Shown here in pieces: positions 44,966-60,047 of a stretch of DNA of 64,000 nucleotides. The translations under genes and the position numbers were made by a program. Each line of letters starts with the position of its first letter. Position 1 is the first letter of the stretch. Under the pieces are notes generated by a model that was given only the letters and a program-made list of their open reading frames with translations, did not search any database and was not told the DNA's origin. Source of the stretch: Sphyrna mokarran. Its lineage: Eukaryota. Location of the stretch: the NCBI GenBank assembly GCA_024679065.1, contig JAGIQG010000032.1, positions 5,890,001 to 5,954,000 on the forward strand. The letters run 5' to 3'.

Positions 44966-45792
44966 GGGTCACGGTCCCAGTTCATATTCTTTACCCTAAC
45001 AGCTGGGGTACTGATGCACAAAACTCCCACTGCAATGCTGCAAATGGCTAAAAATCCTTGTTTATCCTGCTTGACCAGCTTGTATTACAGAAAAACATTT
45101 CCATGCCACTAACCTTATTTGAGGGTTCGTGCCCAATCTCTTCTGATCAACAAACTCCACTGATCTTTGGGATGTATGCTCCTCGTGGACCTTGTTCAAT
45201 CTATATCAAAAGATAAAATTATTAGGGAAGGATTTAACCTGTTGCTTCAATAGTCAAACACAAGGTAGCCAGCCAGTCCTTATACCTTCTCACAGTTCAG
45301 TTACATCATGGCTATTCCATATTAGCTCATTTATTCACTCGTGGCATTATGACCCTTCATTTCTCTTGCCAAACAAAAATCTTAATAACTCACATAATGG
45401 CCAGAATTTTACTGTCCCAGCTGCCAGAGTGGGTGAGGAACAGAAAATGGAAAGGTCTGTTAACCTTGGGTGGGATTTTAGTTTTGGGACGAGTGAGGAC
45501 ATAAAATTCAGTCCAATCGGGATATTTCCTCTCAGCGTGCCACAAGTTCTCCAATATGCCTTATTTGGCCACCAGAATCATGCTTTTCAATGAGGCAGTC
45601 GCTGCACAAGCTCTTCAACCGTGCCTGGGCAGACCAGTTTCCGCCTGAGACAACGCAACAGGAGACAAACTTATGTGACATAGATAATCCTGTGCATCTA
45701 GGAAATGCCTTCCATCACACAGCTCTCTCTCTCTCTCTCAAACAAACACACAAATTCGTCCTCCCTAGTCTAATTTAAATTCCAACACTGAC

Positions 45793-45879
45793 CCGCCGAG
45801 GACCTTTGTACAGCCACTTCTCTGGGTCAAAAGGCTCCTTAAAGTGAGCAAACAGGTTGCTAAACGATACGGATTTTTC
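45793..45879 (-). CDS. NCOA4: NCOA4 exon 9b
   Basis: EKSVSFSNLFAHFKEPFDPEKWLYKGPRR resembles human DLFACMQLKVDKEKWLYRTP; acceptor TTTTTCCCATTGTAG, donor GTCAGT; 87 nt, phase 0/0. Confidence 0.88.
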
Positions 45880-46754
45880 CTACAATGGGAAAAAGAAAGA
45901 ATTCATGAATCAGAGATTTGACAAATCAGAAAGAGTGTTGCAAATATAAAATGTGTTATTATAAAACAGCATTACAAAAATTTTATTCTAATCCTTAAAG
46001 AATCACAGAACTCCTGCAGTGCACAAGGAAGCCATTTGGCCCTTCAACACTGCACCAAAATAATTCCATCTATCCACAGAACCCCACGTATTTACCCTGC
46101 TAGTCCCCTTGACATTATGAAGCGATTGAGCATGGCTGTGGGAGGAAACTGGAGCATCCAGAGGAAACGCACACAAACAAAGGGAGAACGTACAAACTGC
46201 AGAATCACCCAAGGTGGGAATCAAACCCAGGTCCCTAATGCTAATTGAAGTGCTGCCGTGCCAACCAAAGAAGGCAGCTTTAACTGCACGAAATCCAATC
46301 CCTTTCTTTCACAATGAAAACCAGATCATTGCAGTGCAGTAAAATCAGTGTCATGTTGCAGAAAGATACATCATCACTTTTATCCAAGAAGTACCCAGAG
46401 CTCGTGGCCAGAGATCAGAGTCAGATAAAGCTTTGTTTACCAAATACCTGTGACATTTTGTCATGTTTTCTAATGGTCAACTGAGCTACCAAAAATCAAG
46501 CAGCTTTCTACCCAATGTCAGATAGCGGGTGATGCAGTCACAGAGAGAGAGGGTGGGAAGAGAGAGAGAATCACAGCCATACTAAACTCCACACAACAAT
46601 TAGGATCAAGAAACCACCCATTCATCTTCAGCTTTCCTTGCATCAAGATCATTCCTAGCAGTTTGCACCAGAATCAAACTTGGTGGCTCCCTACTCAGTA
46701 TAGCTCTGTCTCATCAGCTGGAGTGTTAAACAGCTTTGGTTTCACTTAAAATGC

Positions 46755-47566
46755 AACTGAGCGGAAAAGTGGCAGATGGACTTCAACGCAGATAAATGTG
46801 TAGTGGTCCATTTTGGCAGGAATAATGGGATGAAGGAGTACAATATAAGGGGTAGGAGTCTTAGCTGTGTTGTAGAGCAGAAGGATCTCGGGGTCCGGGT
46901 CCACAGGACTCTTAAATCGGCCTCGCAGGTGGAGGAAGTGGTCAAGAAGGCGTACGGTGTACTGGCCTTCATTAATCGAGGAATAGAGTTTAGGAGTCAG
47001 GAGGTAATGATGCAGCTCTATAAGACTCTTGTCAGACCCCAGTTGGAGTATTGTGCGCAGTTCTGGTCGCCTCATTATAGGAAGGATGTAGAGGCTATTG
47101 AGAGAGTTCAGAGGAGATTTACAAGGATGCTGCCTGGATTGGGAGGCAGGCCTTATGAAGATAGGTTGAGGGAGCTGGGACTCTTCTCACTGGAGAGACG
47201 TAGGTTGAGAGGCGACCTGATAGAGGTTTATAAAATGTTGAGAGGAATAGATAGGGTGGACTCTCAGAGACTATTTCCCCGAGCTGAAATGGTCACTACG
47301 GGAGGACACAGATTTAAGGTGCAGGGAAGCAAATACAAAGGAGATATCAGGGGTAGGTTTTTCACTCAGAGGGTGGTGAGTGAATGGAACCGACTGCCGT
47401 CGGAGGTTGTTGAGGCAAACTCACTGGGGTCTTTTAAGAGACTTCTGGATGAGTATATGGAAACAAATAGGATAATTGGGTTATAGATAGGTCTGTGATT
47501 GGTAGATGTGATCGGCGCAACTCGTGGGCCGAAGGGCCTGTTTGTGCTGTGTTGTTCTATGTTCTA
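46755..47566 (+). mobile_element. Young 5'-truncated CR1/HER1-type LINE with an intact 236-aa RT C-terminal frame
   Basis: ORF 46776-47486; tail GGGCCGAAGGGCCTGTT...(TTCTA)n. Confidence 0.95.
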
Positions 47567-47579
47567 AACCAGTTTCCTT

Positions 47580-47885
47580 GAGCAGTCAAGCACAGTGATG
47601 AACACTGCTGCCTCACAGTGCCAGGAACCTGGGTTCGACTCCTGGACTGGGTTACTGTGCGCGTGGAGTTTGCACATTTTCCCCCTGTCTGTATGCGTTT
47701 CCTTCGGGTGCTCTGGTTTCCTTCCACAGTCCGAAAGACACGCTGGTTAGATGCATTGGCCGTGCTAAATTCTCCCTTAGATGCACCCGAACAGATGTCA
47801 GAGTGTGCCAACTAGGGGATTTTCACAGTAACTTAATTGCAGTGTTATTGTAAGCCTACTTCTCACATCAATAAATAAACTTTAA
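47580..47885 (+). mobile_element. HE1/V-SINE, tail type B
   Basis: Head GGGTTCGACTCC, V core and type B tail. Confidence 0.88.
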
Positions 47886-48243
47886 ACAAAGTGAAATAAT
47901 TGACGGTTAAAATAGAGATGCAGGGAGTCGGGGGAGGGGTTATGGAATTAGAATGAAACATGAACATCAGCCATGACTGGTCTCATATTCAAGCGATAAG
48001 CTGCTCATGTAGTTTCTCACTATCCCCAACAATAAATATTTGATCAGATGAATATCAATGAAGCAATTATCCTCAAAATTAACACATCTATTCTAATGCA
48101 GACAAAGTCTGCTGCAAGCGAATTTGTGAACAGGCCAAAAAAAACTTGCTGGAAAGGCTCTTTCAGTGAAAGATTAGCTGCATGGTAATACACAGTCAGA
48201 TAACATATTTACACTGGCAACGCTGCACTGCACAGATACTGAC

Positions 48244-48318
48244 CTTTGCTGGAAGCTGCTCTCGATCAACAGTGAGCTTCGAGAAAAGACTGGACACTTC
48301 AGGTATACCACTCAGTTC
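48244..48318 (-). CDS. NCOA4: NCOA4 exon 9a
   Basis: ELSGIPEVSSLFSKLTVDREQLPAK resembles human YGLPAVCDLFACMQLKVDKE; acceptor TTTATGCTTAG, donor GTCAGT; 75 nt, phase 0/0. Confidence 0.75.
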
Positions 48319-48649
48319 CTAAGCATAAACACACATACTTAAGTGCTTTGGGAAACAGCTTTGAACTTTGCAAAGTAACTCCCACTTTGTTACTAAAGCT
48401 GCACTGCACTAGCCTCAGTCTTCACTGAATATAGGGAAGATTGACAATGGCTACTGGTACATATGCGATCATGTGGAATTGCTAATAAAACTGCTGCAAA
48501 AAGGTACAACAATTGGGGACACCCACAAGTTAATGTCTCCTGAATATTAACAGCTGGCTCACAGAGGGGCTGGAGAACGAATACTCCACAGCCACAACTA
48601 ACCCCAATCGCTGAGCAAAGTGGCAGATTACTGATAATTGGCTAATGGG

Positions 48650-48910
48650 CAAATTGGTTAGCACTGCTACTTCAGTGCCAGAGAGCCAGGTTTGATTCCC
48701 AGCTCGGGTCACTCTCTGTGCACATTCTCCCTCCGGGGGTTTCCTCTGGTTCCCTCCTGCCATCCAAAAGGTGTGCTGGTTAGGTGCATTGGCTATGCTA
48801 AATTCTCCTTCAGTGTACCCAAACAGATGCCAGAGTGTGGTGACTGGGGGATTTTCACACTAACTTTATTGCAATGTTAACGTAAGCCTACTTGTGAGAC
48901 TAATAAATTA
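48650..48910 (+). mobile_element. HE1/V-SINE, tail type B
   Basis: Head TGGTTAGCACTGCT, V core and type B tail. Confidence 0.85.
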
Positions 48911-49590
48911 GAGGAGTTAAACATGGAGAGCATGACCTTGAATTTCTGGAAGTTCATTCAGAACCAGCTCATTGGGGTGACAGCACAGTTTCCTAATCAC
49001 TGACCTAATAAAGCAGAGACCTTTGGAGTCATTACTGGAGGACTTTCGCCAATTTAAAATGATTTTGAAGCAATGCCCACATGGCTAATGAGCTATAAAG
49101 TTTTCCTACTGCTCACAAACAAACCATTAAGCTGCATAACACATAGATAAGACAAAAAAAACATAGGGGCAAAAAATGTAGACCGATGAATCACTGCTGG
49201 GAATTGTTCAGACATGTTTAGCCTCAGTAGCTTAGAAAGACGTGGAGTGGGGTCTGAAATAAAATTCTTTTACATCGTAGGCGATGCGCCTTCAAGCAAG
49301 GATGTAACCTGGGCTGAAGGTAGGATGTAACTATCAAGGATGTTTATAGTTATTTAGGGTTTTCTTTGAAATTTGTCTGTGTTGTGAATGCTCAATGGGT
49401 AAAGAGATATGTCCACCTTGGGAAGTGAAGCAAAGTATTATTTTGAGCAATCTGGGGAATGGTGTTTCAGTTCATTATCAGCCCACCTTAGTGAGTGACA
49501 AGAATGAATGCACCTTATTAAATGAACAGATGACAAATATACCAAGCATCATAAAAATACAGTTCTGGGATAAGAGTTGGAGATTCTTAC

Positions 49591-50763
49591 ATGTGCTTTC
49601 TTGCGCAGCAAAAATTTATTCTCTACTTCGTGTTCAGCCCCTTTCTCTGCGCCCTCAAGTACAGTGTTAACAGGAGATTTTGATATCAGGGTTTCGTATG
49701 ACTTCACAGGATTGCTGACAGAGACCTCTGGTTCTTTTGTGGACTGTGATCGGGGATGTAGCCACTGTTCTAAATCAGTCTTCTGCTGCTCTGCACTGTG
49801 CTTGCTCGGCTGACCTGTCTGCACGCCATTCTTGTCTCTTCCCGCTTGCTTGAGTAGCCATTCGTTGACTGCCTCCTTTTCACAGCTCCGGCCACACACG
49901 CACTCCGAGAAACTGCTGCACTGCTCGTTGGCTTTACACACGTCTGCAACTCGGATTGGCAATGGTGAAGGAAGGCAGCGGGAGTTGTTTACCGACACTG
50001 GCGACGGTTTCTTGGCATTATGGTACTCACTCAGGCACTTCAGCTTGCCAAGGTTTTCGATCTCTATGGCTTTGGGCTGAACGCCACAGCAGCTATTACA
50101 GGAATCACCCTTACTTGACTTCAGAAGCCACTCGCTGGTACTGTACTTCTCTCTGAAAGGCTGAGTTATGGATTTCCATTTGTCTTCATTGGTGCTGTCA
50201 CCAGTTGCTTTTTCAGAATGTGTGTTCTTCACTTCAGCGATTGGGCTCGCTTCTTCCTCTTCTTGGTCCACAACATCCATGTCAAATTCCTCTATAAGCT
50301 CAAAGGTGGAAGAGCTACCAGATGACTCAGTACGCTGGCGTGGAGGGGTCTCCTTGGAGGGACCGGATTTCTGCTTCTCGGAAAGTAGCCAGTGCTCGAG
50401 ACCCTGACGATGACCCCAGGCCTGCAATTTGTAGTAATTCACATCGGCTGGATCCTCACTGGCGGGACTGGGATGTTGCTGTGGAGTGATCTTCTCAGTT
50501 ATGTCAAGGTTCTGCTTGCTGGTAAACAGCCAGTGCTCAAGGCCCTGCCGATGACCCCAGGCCTGCATTCTATAGTAGTTGGGATCTTTTGGGCTCAGGT
50601 TACAGCTAGTGGTGGTTTGGGTGCACTGTTGAGCAGCAATGTTCTCAGCTGGGTGATACCTTCGTTTGCTGGGGAGCAGCCAGTTCTCAAGGCCCTGTTG
50701 ACGCCCCCAGGCTGATAATTTGTAGGAGTCTGAATCTTTTGCACTGGGAGCTGGTGATGATCC
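49591..50763 (-). CDS. NCOA4: NCOA4 large exon 8 (391 codons)
   Basis: Open frame with [44 protein letters not shown] and LLRKKAH; acceptor TTTTTCCACAG, donor GTAAGA. Confidence 0.96.
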
Positions 50764-52533
50764 CTGTGGAAAAATTCAATATTGTGGTCAATTTCAGATA
50801 CCTCCTTTGCAGAATACCAATCAGACCTCAGCACTGAATCCCAACAGTAATCCACTCCAGAGATCCACACATAAAGAGTAGAACTCGAGATATATATACG
50901 TACTAACAATATATTACCCCTGAACCATCTTCCACGTATCTCAAGGGGTTACCTCTTTCAGCAGGCTTAGAGCTCCAGTTAGGCTGAGCTCATTGCAAGT
51001 CTAGATGAAAACCTACTCAGCTTCAGTGAAGGACCACGACCAGGATCAACATCTGCTCTTGAAAATAACACTCTTCTAGAGTCCACTCTATTATAAACAG
51101 GAACAATACAGCTTGCAGACCACTCACGCAGAAGACAAACATTAAAGCTCAGTTACACAAGCCTTCCCCCCACCATTTTACATGAGTAAGTGAAATATTG
51201 TCACCCACTTGTAGAATTAAATACTAGAATCAAAGCCATCATTAGGACTTGTAGTACTTAACACTGCCATTAACACTCCCTTTGTCTTGTGTCCGTGACA
51301 TTTTTGTCAAATCTCGAACTCCCACCTGACATATTTTGCTCCAACCCCTCTCCAACCATATAACCCATCATATCTCTACCTTTCCTCAGCTCTAAAGAAG
51401 TCATACAGGTTGAAATTTTAATTCTGTTCCTCTCTACACAGATGCTGCCAAGACCTGAGGTTTTTTTTCCAGCATTTTATTTTTAGTATGATTTCTCTAA
51501 TCAGTTTAAAACGATTTAATAATTATAATAAATTGCCCTGCAAATTAATGATTAGAAGGACCAGAGTTCAAGAATTATCACTTAATGAGAACCCACATGT
51601 AAGCAAAAGCATTTGCATAATAACATACGTTAACAGCGAAAGCATCTGATCCCACTTTATTTTACTAATAAACATTCCGCACTTTTTAAAAGACAGCAAG
51701 TCTTGAAAGTTTACATTAAGTTAAATCCAGCTTCAGCCTCAGCTGTAAATGCACTAAAAATAAACTGATATTTCTCAATACTTCCAACTTAAACATTAAT
51801 AGCAAACAGTTACATCTTTGATTTAAGATTGGTCAGCTTCTTAGGTCATTCCTGGATTGGAAGCAATACAAAACCTCCTTTATTTCTCATATTTCTTTTA
51901 TTATTTTAATGTGGATGGGTGAAGCACTGAACAAGGGGCACGAGCACATCTATCAAATTTTTGGACCACTGATTAAGAGCTACACACAAGTTTTCATTGC
52001 AGTATGTTTCATAGCACCAATGCAATACACAGAGAGACTAGACGGGTAAATACATGGGGCTATTGGATAGGGCCTGAGTGGGATCGTTGTCAGTGCAGGC
52101 TTGATGGGCCAAATGACACTGTAGAATTCGATGTTTTATTCTATGTTCAGTGACCATCCAGAACAATCCACAATGCTGAACAGAAATACAAATGGATTCT
52201 TTCACTCATGTGTAAAAATGAGCCCAGAGTGTGGATTATATAGAATTATAGAAAAACATTAAGCACAAACAGTTCTATGAACGTCACATCATATCTGCAC
52301 ACACTGATAAATCAAATCTGTGCTATATGCAACAGGAAGGGGAAAACTTATTTTGGTACAATGCAAAATTCTTAATTCATCATCTCAAGTTGTTCCTAAC
52401 AGGACAGACATGTGACAAGCAGTAGAAATGAGTTTATTTAGAGTAAGAAACTAATCGAATGCTTCAGTCTAAATCGGGAATGATCATCATCAGTACTCGA
52501 ATTGACAGTTCCAGGAAGTATATCGATACATAC

Positions 52534-52650
52534 CGGGCTGGACTGTTTCAGCAGACATTCTTGTAGGTTCAAGATTGGCATCCGTGCAGGAGGAGCAGGG
52601 CTATGCAGAAAGTCAGCGAGAGGGCATTCCTTTCCATTGGAGAATGATTT
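52534..52650 (-). CDS. NCOA4: NCOA4 exon 7
   Basis: KSFSNGKECPLADFLHSPAPPARMPILNLQECLLKQSSP weakly resembles human KSASGIVAVPFSEWL; acceptor TTCTTCTTTACAG, donor GTATGT; phase 0/0. Confidence 0.75.
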
Positions 52651-52919
52651 CTGTAAAGAAGAAAGGTAACATTATAGTTACCACATTACAGCAGCAGTAA
52701 CACAGCATAGTATGGCTCAATGCCCCAGGCGTCACACCTGCAGAATGTTGTACAAATGCACAAGGGAAAAAAGAGCAACTAGGGCCAACGCAATGGGACA
52801 TCAAGATCCCTGGTCACTTACCATGTCAACAGAACAGAAGTGCAATACTTCCAAGGCGAGACCTACACCCAGGTGAATGAAATTCACAAGATACTCAGTT
52901 TACAGTATGCCCATTACCA

Positions 52920-53180
52920 AATCACACAATTCTTAACAGTGCAGGTGGCTATTCTGCCCATCAAGACCGCACTGTCAGCAATCCCACTCAGGCCATATCC
53001 CCATTGCCCAACTTATTTACCCTGTTAATCCCCCTGACACTAAGGGGCAATTTCATATGGCCAATCAACCTAATCCGCACATCTTTGGATGTGGGAGGAA
53101 ACAGTCATCTGGAGCTGGAATTGAACCTGGGTCCCTGAAGCTGTGAGGCAGCAGTGCTAACCACTGTGCCACTGTCACCC
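52920..53180 (-). mobile_element. HE1/V-SINE, tail type A
   Basis: Reverse-complement head GTGAGGCAGCAGTGCTAACCACTGTGCCAC and partial core. Confidence 0.85.
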
Positions 53181-53484
53181 TCAATACACTCAAATGAGGG
53201 AAGAACTTATCACAGTCCTAAGGTTACAGCTGAATATCAGTTGTTATATTGTTCTACATTTTACATGCAAGCTTAGGTACAAAAGGTCGTAATTCATATG
53301 TGAAAGCTCAATGCAACAGCAGTATCTGCTTAATTCCAAAACAATAGTACTGTATATATCAAGGCCAATGACCTTCAAAGAGCTGACACTTAAAGATCAA
53401 AATCACAACTGAAAAAAAGGCCAAAATTAGGGAGCTTTTGACATGAAACTGAGCAAATAAATTCGTTGTTCAGATTGTCTGGTT

Positions 53485-53790
53485 GGCACAATGATTAACT
53501 CTGCTGTCTCACCGCTCCATGGACTCAAGTTCGATTCCTGGCTGGGGTCACAGTCCATGTGGAGTTTGCACATTTTCCCCATATCTGCATGGGTTTCCTC
53601 TCACACCCCAAAGACGCGCAGATCAGGTTGATTGGCCATGCAACATTGCCCTTTAGTGTCCCAGGATGTGTAGGTTAGGGGGATTAGTAGCGTGAATGTG
53701 GGATTGTGGGCACAGGGCCTCGGACAGGATTGTTGTTGATGCAGACTCAATGGGCCGAACGGCCTCCTGTAGAGATTTTAATGATTTCTA
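53485..53790 (+). mobile_element. HE1/V-SINE, tail type A
   Basis: GTTCGATTCC B box, V core and GGGCCGAACGGCCTCC tail. Confidence 0.85.
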
Positions 53791-54174
53791 TGATGATATG
53801 CGTACTCATTATGAACTATTATAAATTCAGCCGAAACTTTGGAAAACTTGCCACATCTGCATTAAATTGACACATTGAACTTTCCACACGTTCAGCAACA
53901 GTACAAGAAATGGAAGCTTAAAGAATGGTCCTTTTGGAGCTACAAATTGCAGAAGTAAATTATTTTCTCAATAGCCTCATTTATACACTCATAATCCTGC
54001 TGGAATTTCTTCAATGCCTTTACATTCTCAGTACTGTGTGATCTTCATGCAACTATTGGGAACATTAATAGTTTGTACATTTTTCTAGTGAGCGATGAAG
54101 CACATCAGGTTGAACAAACTCAGTTCACTTTCAACAGCAAGGAACATGACAAGCCACTTCTTAAAAAGTCTTAC

Positions 54175-54252
54175 TGTTGTCAGCAGTGGTACCAAGCAAT
54201 AATCCAAGTCAGCTGCCATGGTGCAAGGGCTCTTGTACTCAGTCTCTGAAAC
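54175..54252 (-). CDS. NCOA4: NCOA4 exon 6 (diverged)
   Basis: VSETEYKSPCTMAADLDYCLVPLLTT; acceptor TTTGTGTGTAG, donor GTAAGA; phase 0/0 at the expected position but little sequence similarity. Confidence 0.6.
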
Positions 54253-55321
54253 CTACACACAAACCAGAAAGAATTTTTAGGACTCCTGTAATCAGGCAGC
54301 CAACATTCACCCCAATTACATTTGCCCACACTATCACTCGCTTGGTGTAAGTGTGTACGCATTTGCCGTCCTCACTAACTTTGTTAGTCACCTGTCTTAT
54401 TTCAAAGCAGGGGCCTGAATTTAGTCCAAAAATAAAAGAATGATCTTTTTTCAGAAGGAGAAACTGTTATTTCTTATCTAGATTTCAAATCGAAGGCAAT
54501 TTACACAAGCCTCCCATCAATCTTTTTATGGCAGGAAGGAAATGGTGACCATGCCAAACTCTGCTTTGGTCACTAAAGAAGTTTACATGCTTTAGGGACA
54601 TTGCTGATTGCTCTGGGTTGGCTGCATTACTGAAAGAGCACAGTCAAGAATAATCACCCACTGAAACATTTTAAACAGGAACAATGGAGAGCAGAGCATA
54701 GCAATATCAGAACACTGCTACATCACAGCATCAGGGACGCACATTCAATTCCAGCCTTAGATCACTCTCTGTATTGAGTCTTCACATTCTCTCATTCCTT
54801 ATGGGTCTCCAGTTTCCTCCCACAGCCTGAAACATGTGCTAGTTAGGTTGACAACTATGGTTAACTGCCCCTTAGTGTCAGGTGTAAATATATGGGTTAC
54901 GGGGATTGGGCCTGGGTGGAATTGCAAACTCAATGGGCTGAATAATCTCCTTCTACACTGTAGGATTAACATGGTTTTAGAACTGCACAACTTAAAGCTG
55001 CAAAGTTGAACGTGGTTACTCAACATTATTGTAAGTGTCATGTTTAAATCTAAGGCCCCATCTAAACAGTTACACCACCCATCATCAGTGAAGCATACTG
55101 ATATACTTATAACCATAAGGGAAATTGGCCAATGCAGATAATTACCATGTTCCAAATGAGGTGTCCTCAATCATTCAGCATACACCGATAGGCAGCAGAT
55201 AAAGAATCTTTTCTCATTGCTATACCACCCTTCCAATAATAAACAAGAATTCTGATTCTCTGACATAAATATTATGAAAAATAAATATTTGTTGAACTAA
55301 CAGACTGGTTAAGATTCTTAC

Positions 55322-55430
55322 CGGTGTTTTGATGGCCCCAAAGCTTGTAATGGCTTGGCGGAGTGTTGGGACGTCAGCCTCAAAGTTCATGGTCGGAGAT
55401 TCTTCCGGTTTCAGAGTCAGGCTCTTCAAT
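55322..55430 (-). CDS. NCOA4: NCOA4 exon 5
   Basis: LKSLTLKPEESPTMNFEADVPTLRQAITSFGAIKTP; 109 nt; canonical splice sites. Confidence 0.96.
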
Positions 55431-55976
55431 CTGGAATGGGACATGTGCTAAATCAGTAACTGGCTGTGTGACTTGCCTATTTACATAACTGCTGAGGGAA
55501 AGCTGTGGAAACATTTAACACAAGCAGGCCATTCTTTATAAAAACCACAGCAGATGCTGGGAATCTAAAATAAACACGGAAAGAAAATGCTGGAAGTACT
55601 CAGCAAAAGTCAGGCAATGGAAGAGGAGAGAAATAAAGCTAATTTTTCCAAGTCGATGGCCTTTCATCAGAAATGGAAACATAATTAATTTCCTTGTCTC
55701 AGTTCATTTGCCGCTTTTTTTTCCTTCTTCAGTTAACACACTCCAAGAGAGCACTGACTCCCATTGGACGGATTTATAGTCAAGTTAAGCTCGAAGATTT
55801 TCACAATAATTTCACTGCAGTCTTAATGTAAGAATTCTGCCATCTTTCCTTTCTGTGTCATATACTTTTGTCTGCCTCAGTACAAAACTTGCTTAAAACC
55901 CGTTGCATCTTTACTCAGAATCATACACAGAGAAGAGGCCCTCCAGGCCACCAAGTCTGCACTGAGAAAGACCTTA

Positions 55977-56005
55977 CACACACACACACACATACACACA
56001 TACAC
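55977..56005. repeat. (CA)n microsatellite
   Basis: Directly visible. Confidence 0.9.
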
Positions 56006-57444
56006 CCTCCCTCCCATCTGATCCCATTTACCAACACTTGACCCACTCCAGTCAGTGCATTGCAGAGAGGTACCCTATGACCCCGGATGGCTTAAGCTCT
56101 TAAGTTTAAAGTTTATTATTGTCACTGTAGGCTTACATTAACACTGCAATCAAGTTATTCTACTCATCACACTCTGGCTTCTGTTCGGGTACATTGAGGG
56201 AAAACTTAGCATGACCAGCACACCTAATCAGCACACCTTTGGACAATGGGAGGAAATCCAGAAGACTCCACAGTCACTCAAGTTGGGAGACAGTGGTGCT
56301 AACCACTGTGCTATCCCTAATGACAGAAAGGGTAATAGCGTAAGACAAAAAAATGATAATGCAACAACCCAAGAAACAAAAGATAGATCTTGAGGCAGTA
56401 TAAATGGCAATAGCAGAATCATTACCAGTTGCAAATGTGGGGGGTAAGAAAATGTGGTTGTGAGGCTATGAAGTGCCTATAAAAAGATGAGTGTTGTCCC
56501 AAACTTCTGATCATTCTATACTGCTGAAGAGAAAGACATGTTGTGGAAGATTTTTCTCTTGCATTCAAGGCAGAACCACAAGAATACCAAATTTCAAAAC
56601 CTATCCTGATGCGTACAAGATGAAAAGCTTCAACAGCTCATCTTTTTTTCAGCGAAGGCAAATGGCCATTTTAAACATTCCTCCTTTTGGGGGCATTTCT
56701 ATTGATATGAAAATCACTGCAGGTTAGGACAGTGGCTGCTATCCCAATTCCCATATAACCCAATTTTAGTTACACTGCTGCTGTTTTTAACATAGAAGCT
56801 GATCCCTGACTCCAAAAATCTTTAATTTGAATGACTGGCACTGAATCTAACACCTTTCTAATCAGTCACAGAATCCCAAACCCTTGCTACCCAGTCGCGC
56901 ACAGCTATGCATTAAATAAAGTGGGTCTACTAGTTATAGGCCAAAAGCCATTTGTTACATATAGGCTGAGTATCATTTAGTCACAAGTTCAAAAGCCAAA
57001 CATATCCAAAAACAGCACTTTTTTTTTTAACCCTATTGATCTTTAGGATAGGAAGTCCAGTTGTTTGTCAGTACTGTTTACCTTGTGGATTTTGTGGGGA
57101 ACATGTCAAAATGAGACTTGTTAAAGATACTGCATTTATTATTCAGGGACGCAACTTAATTTTCTGGACATTTTATTTACTTTAGACCATAGCTATCGCA
57201 GGACTAGGTTATTGTATTGTATGTTTATATATGATGTCCTAAAACCAAAATTATTTGAAGTCTGAAATACAATTGGCTCCAAGGGCTTTGGCTAAAGAAT
57301 ATTTGATCTATCACAGGTACAAAGTAAAAGGCTTTAAGGATTTTAGCTGAAGTTATTCTGCATTTAATTTTGATTTCAACTTCATAACATATACCGACAA
57401 TGAGTTCCTTAAAAAGCCACAACTTGGAGCGTGGCAGTTCTCAC

Positions 57445-57533
57445 CTCTCCAGGCAGGTTATAATTTGATCAGTTGGAAGGTTACTCTGGGGATGTTCCAA
57501 TTGGTGAATAAGGCAGTTGAACTGACCCAGCAG
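57445..57533 (-). CDS. NCOA4: NCOA4 exon 4
   Basis: LLGQFNCLIHQLEHPQSNLPTDQIITCLE(R); 89 nt; acceptor TTTTCCCACAG, donor GTGAGA. Confidence 0.96.
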
Positions 57534-57660
57534 CTGTGGGAAAATAAAAATTGCATTTATACTTGTATCATGGTACAGCTCAAAAAAATAACTGCGCACT
57601 TCAACTATTCTTGTGTATGGTAAACGTGGCAGCCATTCTGCAGAGCAGCAACCTACATGT

Positions 57661-59010
57661 AACAGAGAGATTAATGGAGTGATCAGCAAGTTTGCAGATG
57701 ATACAAAGATGGCTGGACTTGCGGATAGTGAGGAGCATTGTCAGGCGATGCAGCAGGACATAGATAAGCTGGTAGCTTGGGCAGAAAGATGGCAAATGGA
57801 ATTCAATCCTGATAAATGCGAGGTGATGCATTTCAGGAGAAAGATTATTGGGGAGAGGTATATGGTAAAGGGTAGACCTATTAACAGTATAGAAACGCAG
57901 AGGGACCTGGGGTGCAGGTGCACAAGTCTCTGAAGGTGGAGAAGGTTGTGAAGAAAGCATAAGGTATGCTAGCCTTTATAGGAAGAGGTATAGAGTACAA
58001 GAGTTGGCCTTTAATGTTGCAGTTGTATAAAACATTGGTTAGACCTCATTTGGAATACTATGTCCAGTTCTGGTCGCCTTACTACCGGAAGGACGTGGAG
58101 ACTCTGCAGAGAGTGCAGAGGAGGTTTACCAGGATGATGCTTGGTATGGAAGGTGTGAGTTACGAGGAGAGGTTAGGCAAATTGGGGCTGTTTTCCTTAG
58201 AAAGACGTAGACTTAGAGGAGATCTAATAGAGGTGTACAAGATTATGAGGAGTATAAATAGAGTAACCAGGATTAAGCTTTTTCCTAAGATGGACTCAAA
58301 TAGCACAAGGGCTCAAGGGCTTAGGGTGAGGGGGGTAAGGTATAATTTGTATGCTAGAGGGAGTCTTTTCACACAGAGAGTGGTGGGGGTATGGAACGCG
58401 CTGCCAAGTAAAGTGGTAGAGGCAGGCACTCGAGTTATTTAAGAGATACTTAGATGGGCACATGAACAGAATGGGAATGGAGGGGTAAGGAAAACTGATT
58501 TAAAATAGGGATAATGAGCCTGGGGAGTCCCTGGGAAGTGTGTAAATAGACGATGATATTGATGTACTTGTTTTTATCCTGCAGGTGCTTTGGTCCGCCT
58601 AACAAGAGGCGTACACGCGATGGGTCGTGAGAAGGCTGCTCTTGGATTTTTCAAGAGTATCCTAGTGCTTCACGTCATTAGTGTACACTTGACCTGGACC
58701 ATTTGATGGGCAACACAACAGCTCAGTGACTATGCTGTGCTGTGCAGATACATGGATTTGGGCTTGTGTCTGTGGGAGTTTGTGCATTCTCCCCGTACTT
58801 GCGTGGGTTTTCTCCAGGTGCTCTGGTTTCCTCCCACATCCCAAAGATGTGCTCTTAGGCTAACTGGCAGACAAATTCTCCCTAAATTGTCTCAAATTTG
58901 GTTTCAATCCATAAATCTATAAACATAAGACAGGGATCATGGGAACATTGAGGCGGCGGCGCATGCTTGTTGGGCTGAAGGGTCTGTTTCCCGTGCTGTT
59001 TTTTCTTTGT
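57661..59010 (+). mobile_element. CR1-type LINE (RT from KFADDTK onward) with V-SINE-containing 3' UTR
   Basis: ORFs 57613-57933 and 57966-58442 carry RT motifs; the 3' UTR is homologous to 40880-41352. Confidence 0.93.
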
Positions 59011-59593
59011 AGTCATTCATTTATGGAGAAATCGCAAAAAAGAGTTGCAGCAGAAACTAAAGATATACAAAGTTGTAAAGAAGTTGTAGAAATAGGGAGC
59101 AATTAAATCTTGGAAGAAATTAAGACAAGGATCTAAAGTTAAACATTTGAAGGGGAGGGACTGGGAGCTGGTGTTTTGGGACATGCAGTGTCTATGGGAC
59201 ATAAGGTGTAACAATAGAAAAATTAAGTCTCAACATTATAAAAGCGAAGATAAAGATTTTAGTGGCAGACACAGGTTGACGGCAGACAATTTTGCGTAAA
59301 TAGGCAATGAAGACAAAATACTGGCTGTTTCAGTCATGAGGTACACCAGCTCTAGATTTTAGTTTATACATTGGGTTAGTTTACCTCTAAATAGGCTACA
59401 CTTGTGAGCAGGAATAACATAAAATTTAATACCACATAATTATCAACATATTCACAAAAACCTCACAGCAAACTCGCAAGCATTGCATCGTCCTTTTAAA
59501 TGGAATGCACAACCAAAGTTCCAAAAATGTTGCTTTTCTATTTTAAGTCCAACTTCTAGAATTGTTACTTTAATGGCATAACCATTCCCTTAC

Positions 59594-59734
59594 ACAGTAA
59601 AGCTGCTGAATCTGTTGCTGCAGGGCTTCTTCCTTCAGCTGTTGCAGTAGATCGATCTGTTCCAAGAGATAAACCTCTCGACTCCGCAGGCACTCTAAGT
59701 GACGGCTGATACAGCTATGAATTTGAAATTTTAC
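59594..59734 (-). CDS. NCOA4: NCOA4 exon 3
   Basis: VKFQIHSCISRHLECLRSREVYLLEQIDLLQQLKEEALQQQIQQLYC is a hallmark ARA70-domain sequence; 141 nt. Confidence 0.98.
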
Positions 59735-59897
59735 CTACAAAAGACCAAGGAACTAATCAATGGCATTCCACATACAAGAAATGGCATGTTAGAATGAATA
59801 AAAAAATCTACAGGCTGCAGTATTAATAAAACTTTTGTTTTACTTAAGACTTGAGTGTTCTCATCTAGCACCTAACATGATCCAAAGAACAGCTTAC

Positions 59898-60047
59898 CTC
59901 CTTACTGTTTGCTTTTATCTCCTGTTCAGCTTTAATGATACTGCTAATGGCAGTCTCCAAATCTCGTTTAGCCTGGGTGCAATTCATTATCAAATCCTTT
60001 GGTTGGCAGTTTGTACTTTCCCCACCCTGTTTGCGTGTTGGATTCAT
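59898..60047 (-). CDS. NCOA4: NCOA4 first coding exon (exon 2; acceptor places the exon start at 60055)
   Basis: MNPTRKQGG...CTQAKRDLETAISSIIKAEQEIKANSKE resembles human CSDARRDLELAIGGVLRAEQQIKDNLRE; donor GTAAGC. Confidence 0.94.

Follow-up and report, generated by a model that had tools for sequence, protein, structure and literature searches.

As far as is known, vertebrates have no established cargo receptor for ferritin other than NCOA4, and the question raised by this locus is whether the NCOA4 of a shark can still take hold of ferritin. The window analysed here (64,000 nucleotides of Sphyrna mokarran DNA, contig JAGIQG010000032.1) carries an NCOA4 gene on its minus strand, and a preliminary description of it had proposed that the ferritin-binding tryptophan, W497 in human numbering, was replaced by valine, so that the protein might bind ferritin differently or be no canonical receptor. 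The answer matters beyond one species. If a whole vertebrate class is without this grip, there would have to be another ferritin-recycling route or a second NCOA4 binding mode; if the grip is truly lost, sharks would represent a natural separation-of-function allele, with the Fe-S/HERC2 module working without ferritin. Work that links the shark ferritin expansion with ferroptosis and longevity takes a functional NCOA4 for granted (PMC13214024).

The gene is intact and transcribed. Its coding span (45147..60047, minus strand) comprises 10 coding exons (60047-59898, 59734-59594, 57533-57445, 55430-55322, 54252-54175, 52650-52534, 50763-49591, 48318-48244, 45879-45793, and 45200-45147) that encode 690 aa with 0 internal stops; the exon borders are all AG/GT and every intron is GT-AG. 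Orthology is indicated by a match to Pfam ARA70 (PF12489, E 3.6e-13), by the mapping of all exons to named NCOA4 proteins, by the presence of the N-terminal coiled-coil exons, and by identity with the NCOA4 of Mustelus asterias at 637 of 692 aligned positions. The large exon that concerns us (49591..50763, minus strand) is the seventh coding exon, and the splice at 49590 is seen in X2 and X3 contigs. Its earlier numbering as exon 8 fits if one non-coding exon precedes, and an acceptor AG found 8 nt upstream of the start codon suggests as much.

The X2 contigs, which come from a different sample and study and are RNA by our guess, show 0 differences across 49590-50050 and continue at 49590 directly into the following NCOA4 exon. 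An assembly error at the Val codon is ruled out by this identity, and a hidden exon near the W497 site by the direct splice. Support for the codon comes from contigs, as the two X23 raw reads both lie at 49891-50050.

The valine is real, as had been reported. The 15-residue segment that contains it occupies 49701-49657 of the minus strand, with GTA (Val) at 49662-49660, and the same codon is read in the window and, identically, in the independent spliced X2 contig. The stretch that runs on to LLRKKA is also as short as was claimed: 43 residues separate the WLHP and ENKF anchors, compared with approximately 94-102 in the tetrapod and lungfish rows measured with a slightly different anchor pair, and more than that in one caecilian with repeats. 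It is the register that fails. When segments were aligned (two MAFFT modes for 35 vertebrates, one MAFFT mode for 15 chondrichthyans), the W497 column was occupied in the window by a gap and not by the Val. A profile of the ferritin-binding element, which gives its training rows 13-19 bits, gave the proposed register -21.4 bits.

What lies at this place is a deletion. At the junction NPVK|SYE (49701..49702, minus strand), 14 residues with the equivalents of I489 to W497 are missing. The NPVK (49702..49713, minus strand) is a remnant of the start of the element and aligns with tetrapod EPLK and mammalian DSFQ (approximately 484-487), so that the deleted block corresponds to approximately human 488-501. 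Gone with it are the equivalents of I489, S492, P493, L494, W497, and L498, together with the second LIR. In the human protein, the positions S492, P493, L494, W497, L498, and I499 are numbered after PMC4592949 and PMC11076521, and the second LIR is 485-SFQVI-489 (bioRxiv 2024.06.09.597909). Human numbering was taken from these three papers, and its spacing fits the mammal-like record P0281.

Two chondrichthyans show what was there before. The 14-residue block reads FGDPPLSAGLAPSQ in the sevengill shark Heptranchias, which keeps the block with W changed to G, and TRSTELAAWLAPSC in the chimaera Callorhinchus, which keeps the W. In each it stands after P[VM]K, and in each it is followed by a homologue of the segment in question (SPEDVKSNTPV in Heptranchias, SPVAKNANTPF in Callorhinchus), whereas in other elasmobranchs PVK runs straight into that segment. 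The segment of the window (49657..49701, minus strand; Heptranchias counterpart SPEDVKSNTPVDTP) is, then, the homologue of the stretch after the W block, and its Val (49660..49662, minus strand) is not the W497 position: it lies approximately 14 residues downstream of the deletion that took the block and beside a second deletion, of approximately 13 residues after PVNT, that is common to galeomorphs other than Heterodontus. Among the galeomorphs printed, this column reads V, I, V, A, T, V, and V, and never Trp. A point change within an otherwise aligned motif would draw on the superficial likeness of ISKSP to IKNSP and on a 10-residue gap-free match by eye, but the free variation of the Val column, the order of block and segment in Heptranchias and Callorhinchus, and the profile score make it highly improbable, provided that the gene models of these two intermediates are right. 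From the gap in the W497 column, the chimaera and sevengill intermediates, and that same score, we read the Trp as deleted rather than replaced: judged from the aligned sequences, W497 was lost by deletion of its block and not swapped for Val. The possibility, raised earlier, that the Trp of LEQWLH belongs at W497 does not hold either, as the alignment pairs LEQWLH with another anchor further upstream, xWLxP, whose conserved Trp lies in the window at EQWLH (49756..49770, minus strand).

The deletion is widespread. The block is absent in 48 of the 49 elasmobranch records that cover the region (a count that omits 2 fragments falling outside it) and in every isoform examined; by species, the junction is common to 22 of 23 elasmobranchs, the window's included (13 sharks and 9 rays). 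Callorhinchus, tetrapods, lungfish, and hagfish carry the block. The part of the preliminary description that saw an NCOA4 lacking its ferritin-binding Trp, and perhaps no canonical receptor, is supported, more strongly than had been proposed, and extends to nearly all sharks and rays compared, whereas the cause it gave, W497V, gives way to a deletion.

The profile of the ferritin-binding element was trained on 123 of 131 tetrapod, lungfish, and hagfish rows; of the eight that were missed, four were without the anchor, three had the Trp in a variant, and one was the caecilian with repeats. The full helix-plus-Trp element scores 13-19 bits in the mammal-like record and the hagfish (both training rows) and in lungfish, from which we take it to be ancestral; the hagfish keeps it in full. 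Callorhinchus milii shares with the shark the repeats, the anchors, and a ferritin (FTH1a) with S22 and L82. Unlike the shark, it keeps the 14-residue block with the Trp (ELAAWLA), and the preceding helix is degenerate, being one residue short and without a hydrophobic I489 position, with Glu for P493. Ray-finned Ncoa4 resembles the shark protein in being without the hydrophobic helix, and some ray-finned lineages are also without the Trp. Of the motif, only the Trp core is left in Polyodon, Amia, Serrasalmus, and Xyrauchen; the motif is absent in Erpetoichthys, Champsocephalus, and Hippocampus, and Liparis is ambiguous. These losses differ from the shark deletion in being independent, with other ends, and fth1a keeps N22, R23, and F82 in the three complete ray-finned rows examined. 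Records P0269-P0272 (bichirs, a seahorse, and an icefish) are without the W497 motif, and a rodent record, P0288 from Sigmodon, has Arg at the W497 position.

Could another part of the shark protein have taken over? No substitute helix-plus-Trp was found in the window exon, where the best profile score was -6.4 against a shuffled-exon 95th percentile of -6.2. One of 15 elasmobranch rows rose above its shuffles, through an N-terminal PLADWL in S. torazame (2.6 against a 95th percentile of -0.4). Other vertebrates have an N-terminal look-alike, PLxxWL; in the window (52606..52623, minus strand) it is PLADFL, with Phe for Trp, and in Mustelus PFADFL, whereas the remaining sharks and rays printed have Trp at this site. 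Binding through triplicated WL motifs had been suggested, and three copies of Y[KR]xxAWGxxQGLExWL are indeed present (50383..50724, minus strand: 50724-50674, 50574-50524, and 50433-50383). They are copies of the ARA70-family stretch, unlike the ferritin-binding element, and occur also in the Trp-keeping Callorhinchus, so the suggestion finds no support: the repeats predate the deletion. Skates have a Trp further down (LDKWMH), aligned with a different vertebrate motif. In human NCOA4, deleting 490-499 abolishes ferritin binding and fragment 1-245 is non-binding (PMC4592949). With the queries used, no PDB chain of at least 20 residues covering the ferritin-binding peptide was found.

The remainder of the protein is kept in good order. 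A HERC2-binding/[2Fe-2S] domain at 49825..49938 (minus strand) matches PDB 9l93_C with E 7e-15 over 46 residues. Its Cys codons at 49938, 49920, 49902, 49896, and 49884 reproduce the spacing of human C404, C410, C416, C418, and C422, and KNG, with the equivalents of K439 and N440, is at 49833-49825. The four Fe-S cysteines and the HERC2-binding surface are thereby retained (human sites per PMC12318192), and the likeness to the NCOA4-HERC2 [2Fe-2S] complex (PDB 9L93) in cluster and HERC2 binding is one of sequence only. Also retained is the first LIR-like motif, FSECV (49897..49911, minus strand), which corresponds to human 413-FAECV-417 (bioRxiv 2024.06.09.597909), whereas the second, 485-SFQVI-489, is cut by deletion 1. 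A YETL core after the junction is at chance level, is FEAL in Mustelus, and is missing in most others. Set against the human protein (Mancias 2015, PMC4592949; cryo-EM of Hoelzgen 2024, PMC11076521), shark NCOA4 shares the coiled-coil N-terminus, ARA70, the Cys-rich HERC2 domain, LIR1, and the exon end LLRKKA, but is without the 488-501 equivalent and LIR2, has the ARA70 stretch in triplicate, and has extra C-terminal exons. Of the features of a canonical receptor, LIR1 is kept, and both LIR2 and the motif with F486, I489, P493, W497, and L498 are absent.

The partner has also changed. The FTH1 orthologue (G000:C1437:81209576-81215559, at 81.21 Mb; L041, L042, and L050) bears an IRE, is spliced in X2, X12, and X16, and lies approximately 30 kb from a bestrophin gene, presumably the same order as human FTH1 next to BEST1. 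It retains R23, which it had been suggested should be checked, together with A19, L27, Y30, R80, K87, and D90, but has S at 22 and L at 82. The contigs of organisms E and F agree on S22, and those of F also on L82; both N22S and F82L are found in Callorhinchus FTH1a. The complete tetrapod and ray-finned ferritin rows compared have N22 and F82, and N22-R23, F82, and K87 occur together in 53 of 79 parsed ferritins. In the human complex, W497 is hydrogen-bonded by N22 and sandwiched by F82, and the N22A mutant no longer binds (PMC11076521); the two substitutions therefore fall on two W497 contacts.

A second IRE-bearing H-like ferritin (G000:C927:16889458-16892040; L023 and L024) has N22-R23, Ile82, and Ala or Ser at 87. 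It is annotated as "ferritin heavy chain-like" in other elasmobranchs and is flanked by two more single genes. It is easily mistaken for FTH1, but the bestrophin synteny on C1437 identifies it as a paralogue, and F82I with K87A or K87S in 12 elasmobranch-type records, being a comparison of paralogues, is not used as evidence of co-evolution. Tandem ferritin arrays lie at C960:0.3-8.8 Mb, C927:16.89-16.98 Mb, C1005, C894, and C771:105.8-109.4 Mb of the same assembly (G000), the same arrays as in the described shark FTH1b expansion (bioRxiv 2024.09.09.611499, PMC13214024). From 581 candidate ferritin matches in the genome 150 were scored, and of 19 exon-1 matches in the ferritin stretches that were sampled, 15 have K at the R23 position, 2 have N, and 2 have R. 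A pattern search beside the first exons of array ferritins found no IRE-like hairpin in the stretches scanned. The available text of Sahm 2024 on these arrays does not mention NCOA4 (bioRxiv 2024.09.09.611499), and Yang 2026, in the text available, invokes NCOA4-mediated ferritinophagy as a link to ferroptosis and does not examine shark NCOA4 (PMC13214024). Two bacterial records, P0149 from Aeromonas veronii and P0238 from Yersinia pestis, contain ferritins that match the shark exon at 96% and 83% identity along 48 residues; these are vertebrate-type and probably reflect contamination in public records.

How, then, should the function of this protein be seen? Four things were observed directly: the deletion, its presence in 22 of 23 elasmobranch species, the modules that are retained, and the N22S and F82L changes of FTH1. 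On these grounds, shark NCOA4 has probably lost the canonical docking into the R23 cleft of ferritin H. It would then be an iron-sensed protein under Fe-S/HERC2 control and a poor or null ferritin carrier, and ferritin iron in sharks and rays would be released mostly by an NCOA4-independent route. The ferritin interface may have decayed first, in the chondrichthyan stem; we infer this order from Callorhinchus, with its shortened, non-hydrophobic helix, its Glu for P493, and its N22S/F82L ferritin. The idle block would then have lost its Trp in Heptranchias and been excised a single time, in the common line of rays and the remaining sharks. Several points weigh against lost docking. R23 and the greater part of the pocket are intact in FTH1, the changes to Ser and Leu are less drastic than the Ala mutants that were assayed, and the motif is also labile in ray-finned fishes, whose fth1a keeps N22, R23, and F82. 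In addition, the C927 paralogue, with its IRE, keeps N22-R23, the S. torazame PLADWL scores above shuffles (PLADFL in the window), and the many other WL motifs could act as weak sites that sum on a 24-valent ferritin.

The main alternative is that shark NCOA4 is still a receptor through its WL repeats, through EQWLH or TSEWLL, or through weak condensate contacts, possibly with FTH1b or C927 ferritins as cargo. Strict retention of the Fe-S/HERC2 module and LIR1 is best explained if iron is still handled, the R23 of FTH1 is in place, and invertebrate-like relatives have many WL repeats. Morpholino knockdown of zebrafish ncoa4 impairs red-cell formation (PMC4592949), so fishes with a cut-down motif still need the gene for erythropoiesis; fish NCOA4 may accordingly carry ferritin without the canonical element, and sharks may do the same. 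Of the points against lost docking, this one weighs most. Against this, no stretch of the window exon exceeds shuffle level on the element profile, the repeats were in place before the deletion (in Callorhinchus), array ferritins mostly have K at R23, and in the human protein, regions outside 485-509 do not sustain binding after 490-499 has been deleted. We regard an alternative-site receptor as rather unlikely, and retain the loss of canonical docking as the preferred reading.

In the textbook tree, rays are sister to all sharks, and hexanchiforms lie inside Squalomorphii. This tree would require the 14-residue loss to have occurred three times (rays, galeomorphs, and Pristiophorus) or incomplete lineage sorting, whereas one deletion is enough if the first split separates Hexanchiformes from the rest of the sharks and rays. 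At the protein level, the deletion ends are identical in 9 ray species, in 12 galeomorphs including the window, and in Pristiophorus, and the block is 14 residues long in both Heptranchias and the outgroup Callorhinchus. In an NCOA4 protein tree of 20 rows, with Mustelus as stand-in for the window, Heptranchias branches off first in 679 and the sharks group together in 20 of 1000 bootstrap replicates; branch support is 68/73, the internal branches are short (0.015-0.027 per column), and shark monophyly survives the AU test (p 0.25). Of two recent phylogenomic preprints, one finds that UCEs favour Hexanchiformes-first and that exons do not, with rays versus sharks as the "traditional" view (bioRxiv 10.64898/2026.02.13.705779), and the other obtains Hexanchiformes-first from unfiltered exons and shark monophyly from filtered exons (bioRxiv 2025.08.19.671162). 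The words indel, insertion, and deletion are absent from the main texts of both.

That the deletion happened once, after Hexanchiformes split from other sharks and rays, with sharks paraphyletic, is a real possibility to which we give somewhat less than even credence. The identical ends, the equal block length in Heptranchias and the outgroup, the NCOA4 tree, and the UCE topology all speak for it. Against it are the reliance on one gene with modest support (68/73) and the AU result, the filtered exon data, and a squalomorph sample of one hexanchiform and one other species at one locus, which leaves out Squaliformes and Squatina. The opposite view, that sharks are monophyletic and that the pattern reflects either hemiplasy, with a deletion polymorphism sorted over the short early branches, or the recurrent loss of a dispensable block, we hold to be evenly poised between true and false. 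The short internal branches favour it, as does the indel-prone nature of the region (deletion 2 of galeomorphs, an extra loss in Narcine, and the separate ray-finned losses), but it is unlikely that three separate deletions would share their ends, and the other deletions end differently. The 14-residue deletion may be usable as a marker, an alignment-level character for the open dispute on shark monophyly between the two preprints, and we offer it as a lead. A fuller account would have sharks and rays abandon NCOA4 ferritinophagy, with grip and cleft co-decayed in early cartilaginous fishes, the block excised once after the cow and frilled sharks had branched off, the hundred-copy ferritin arrays outside NCOA4 control, and a 42-base scar recording shark non-monophyly; taken as a whole, it seems to us doubtful.

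We found no paper on shark NCOA4, which is weak evidence, since the same searches missed PMC13214024, a text that contains both words, and ortholog alignments in the supplements of bioRxiv 2024.06.09.597909 and PMC12318192 might include a shark. New here are the identical NCOA4 deletion in rays and non-hexanchiform sharks and its bearing on the shark root.

Two further features accompany the gene. Two genome searches, the second with a stricter first pass and both giving a floor only, returned no second intact NCOA4. The other match in the genome is a decayed copy of part of the large exon, on C771 alone (G000:C771:84696660-84697215; L051:4660-5215), disrupted by stops and frameshifts and missing the Cys domain from its interior. 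At approximately 69-72% DNA identity it has the same NPVK|S junction and deletion 2, which shows that both deletions are old. Finally, an open frame of 241 aa lies inside an NCOA4 intron on the opposite strand (46761-47486, plus strand), and we take it to resemble the 3' end of a CR1/L2-type LINE reverse transcriptase.
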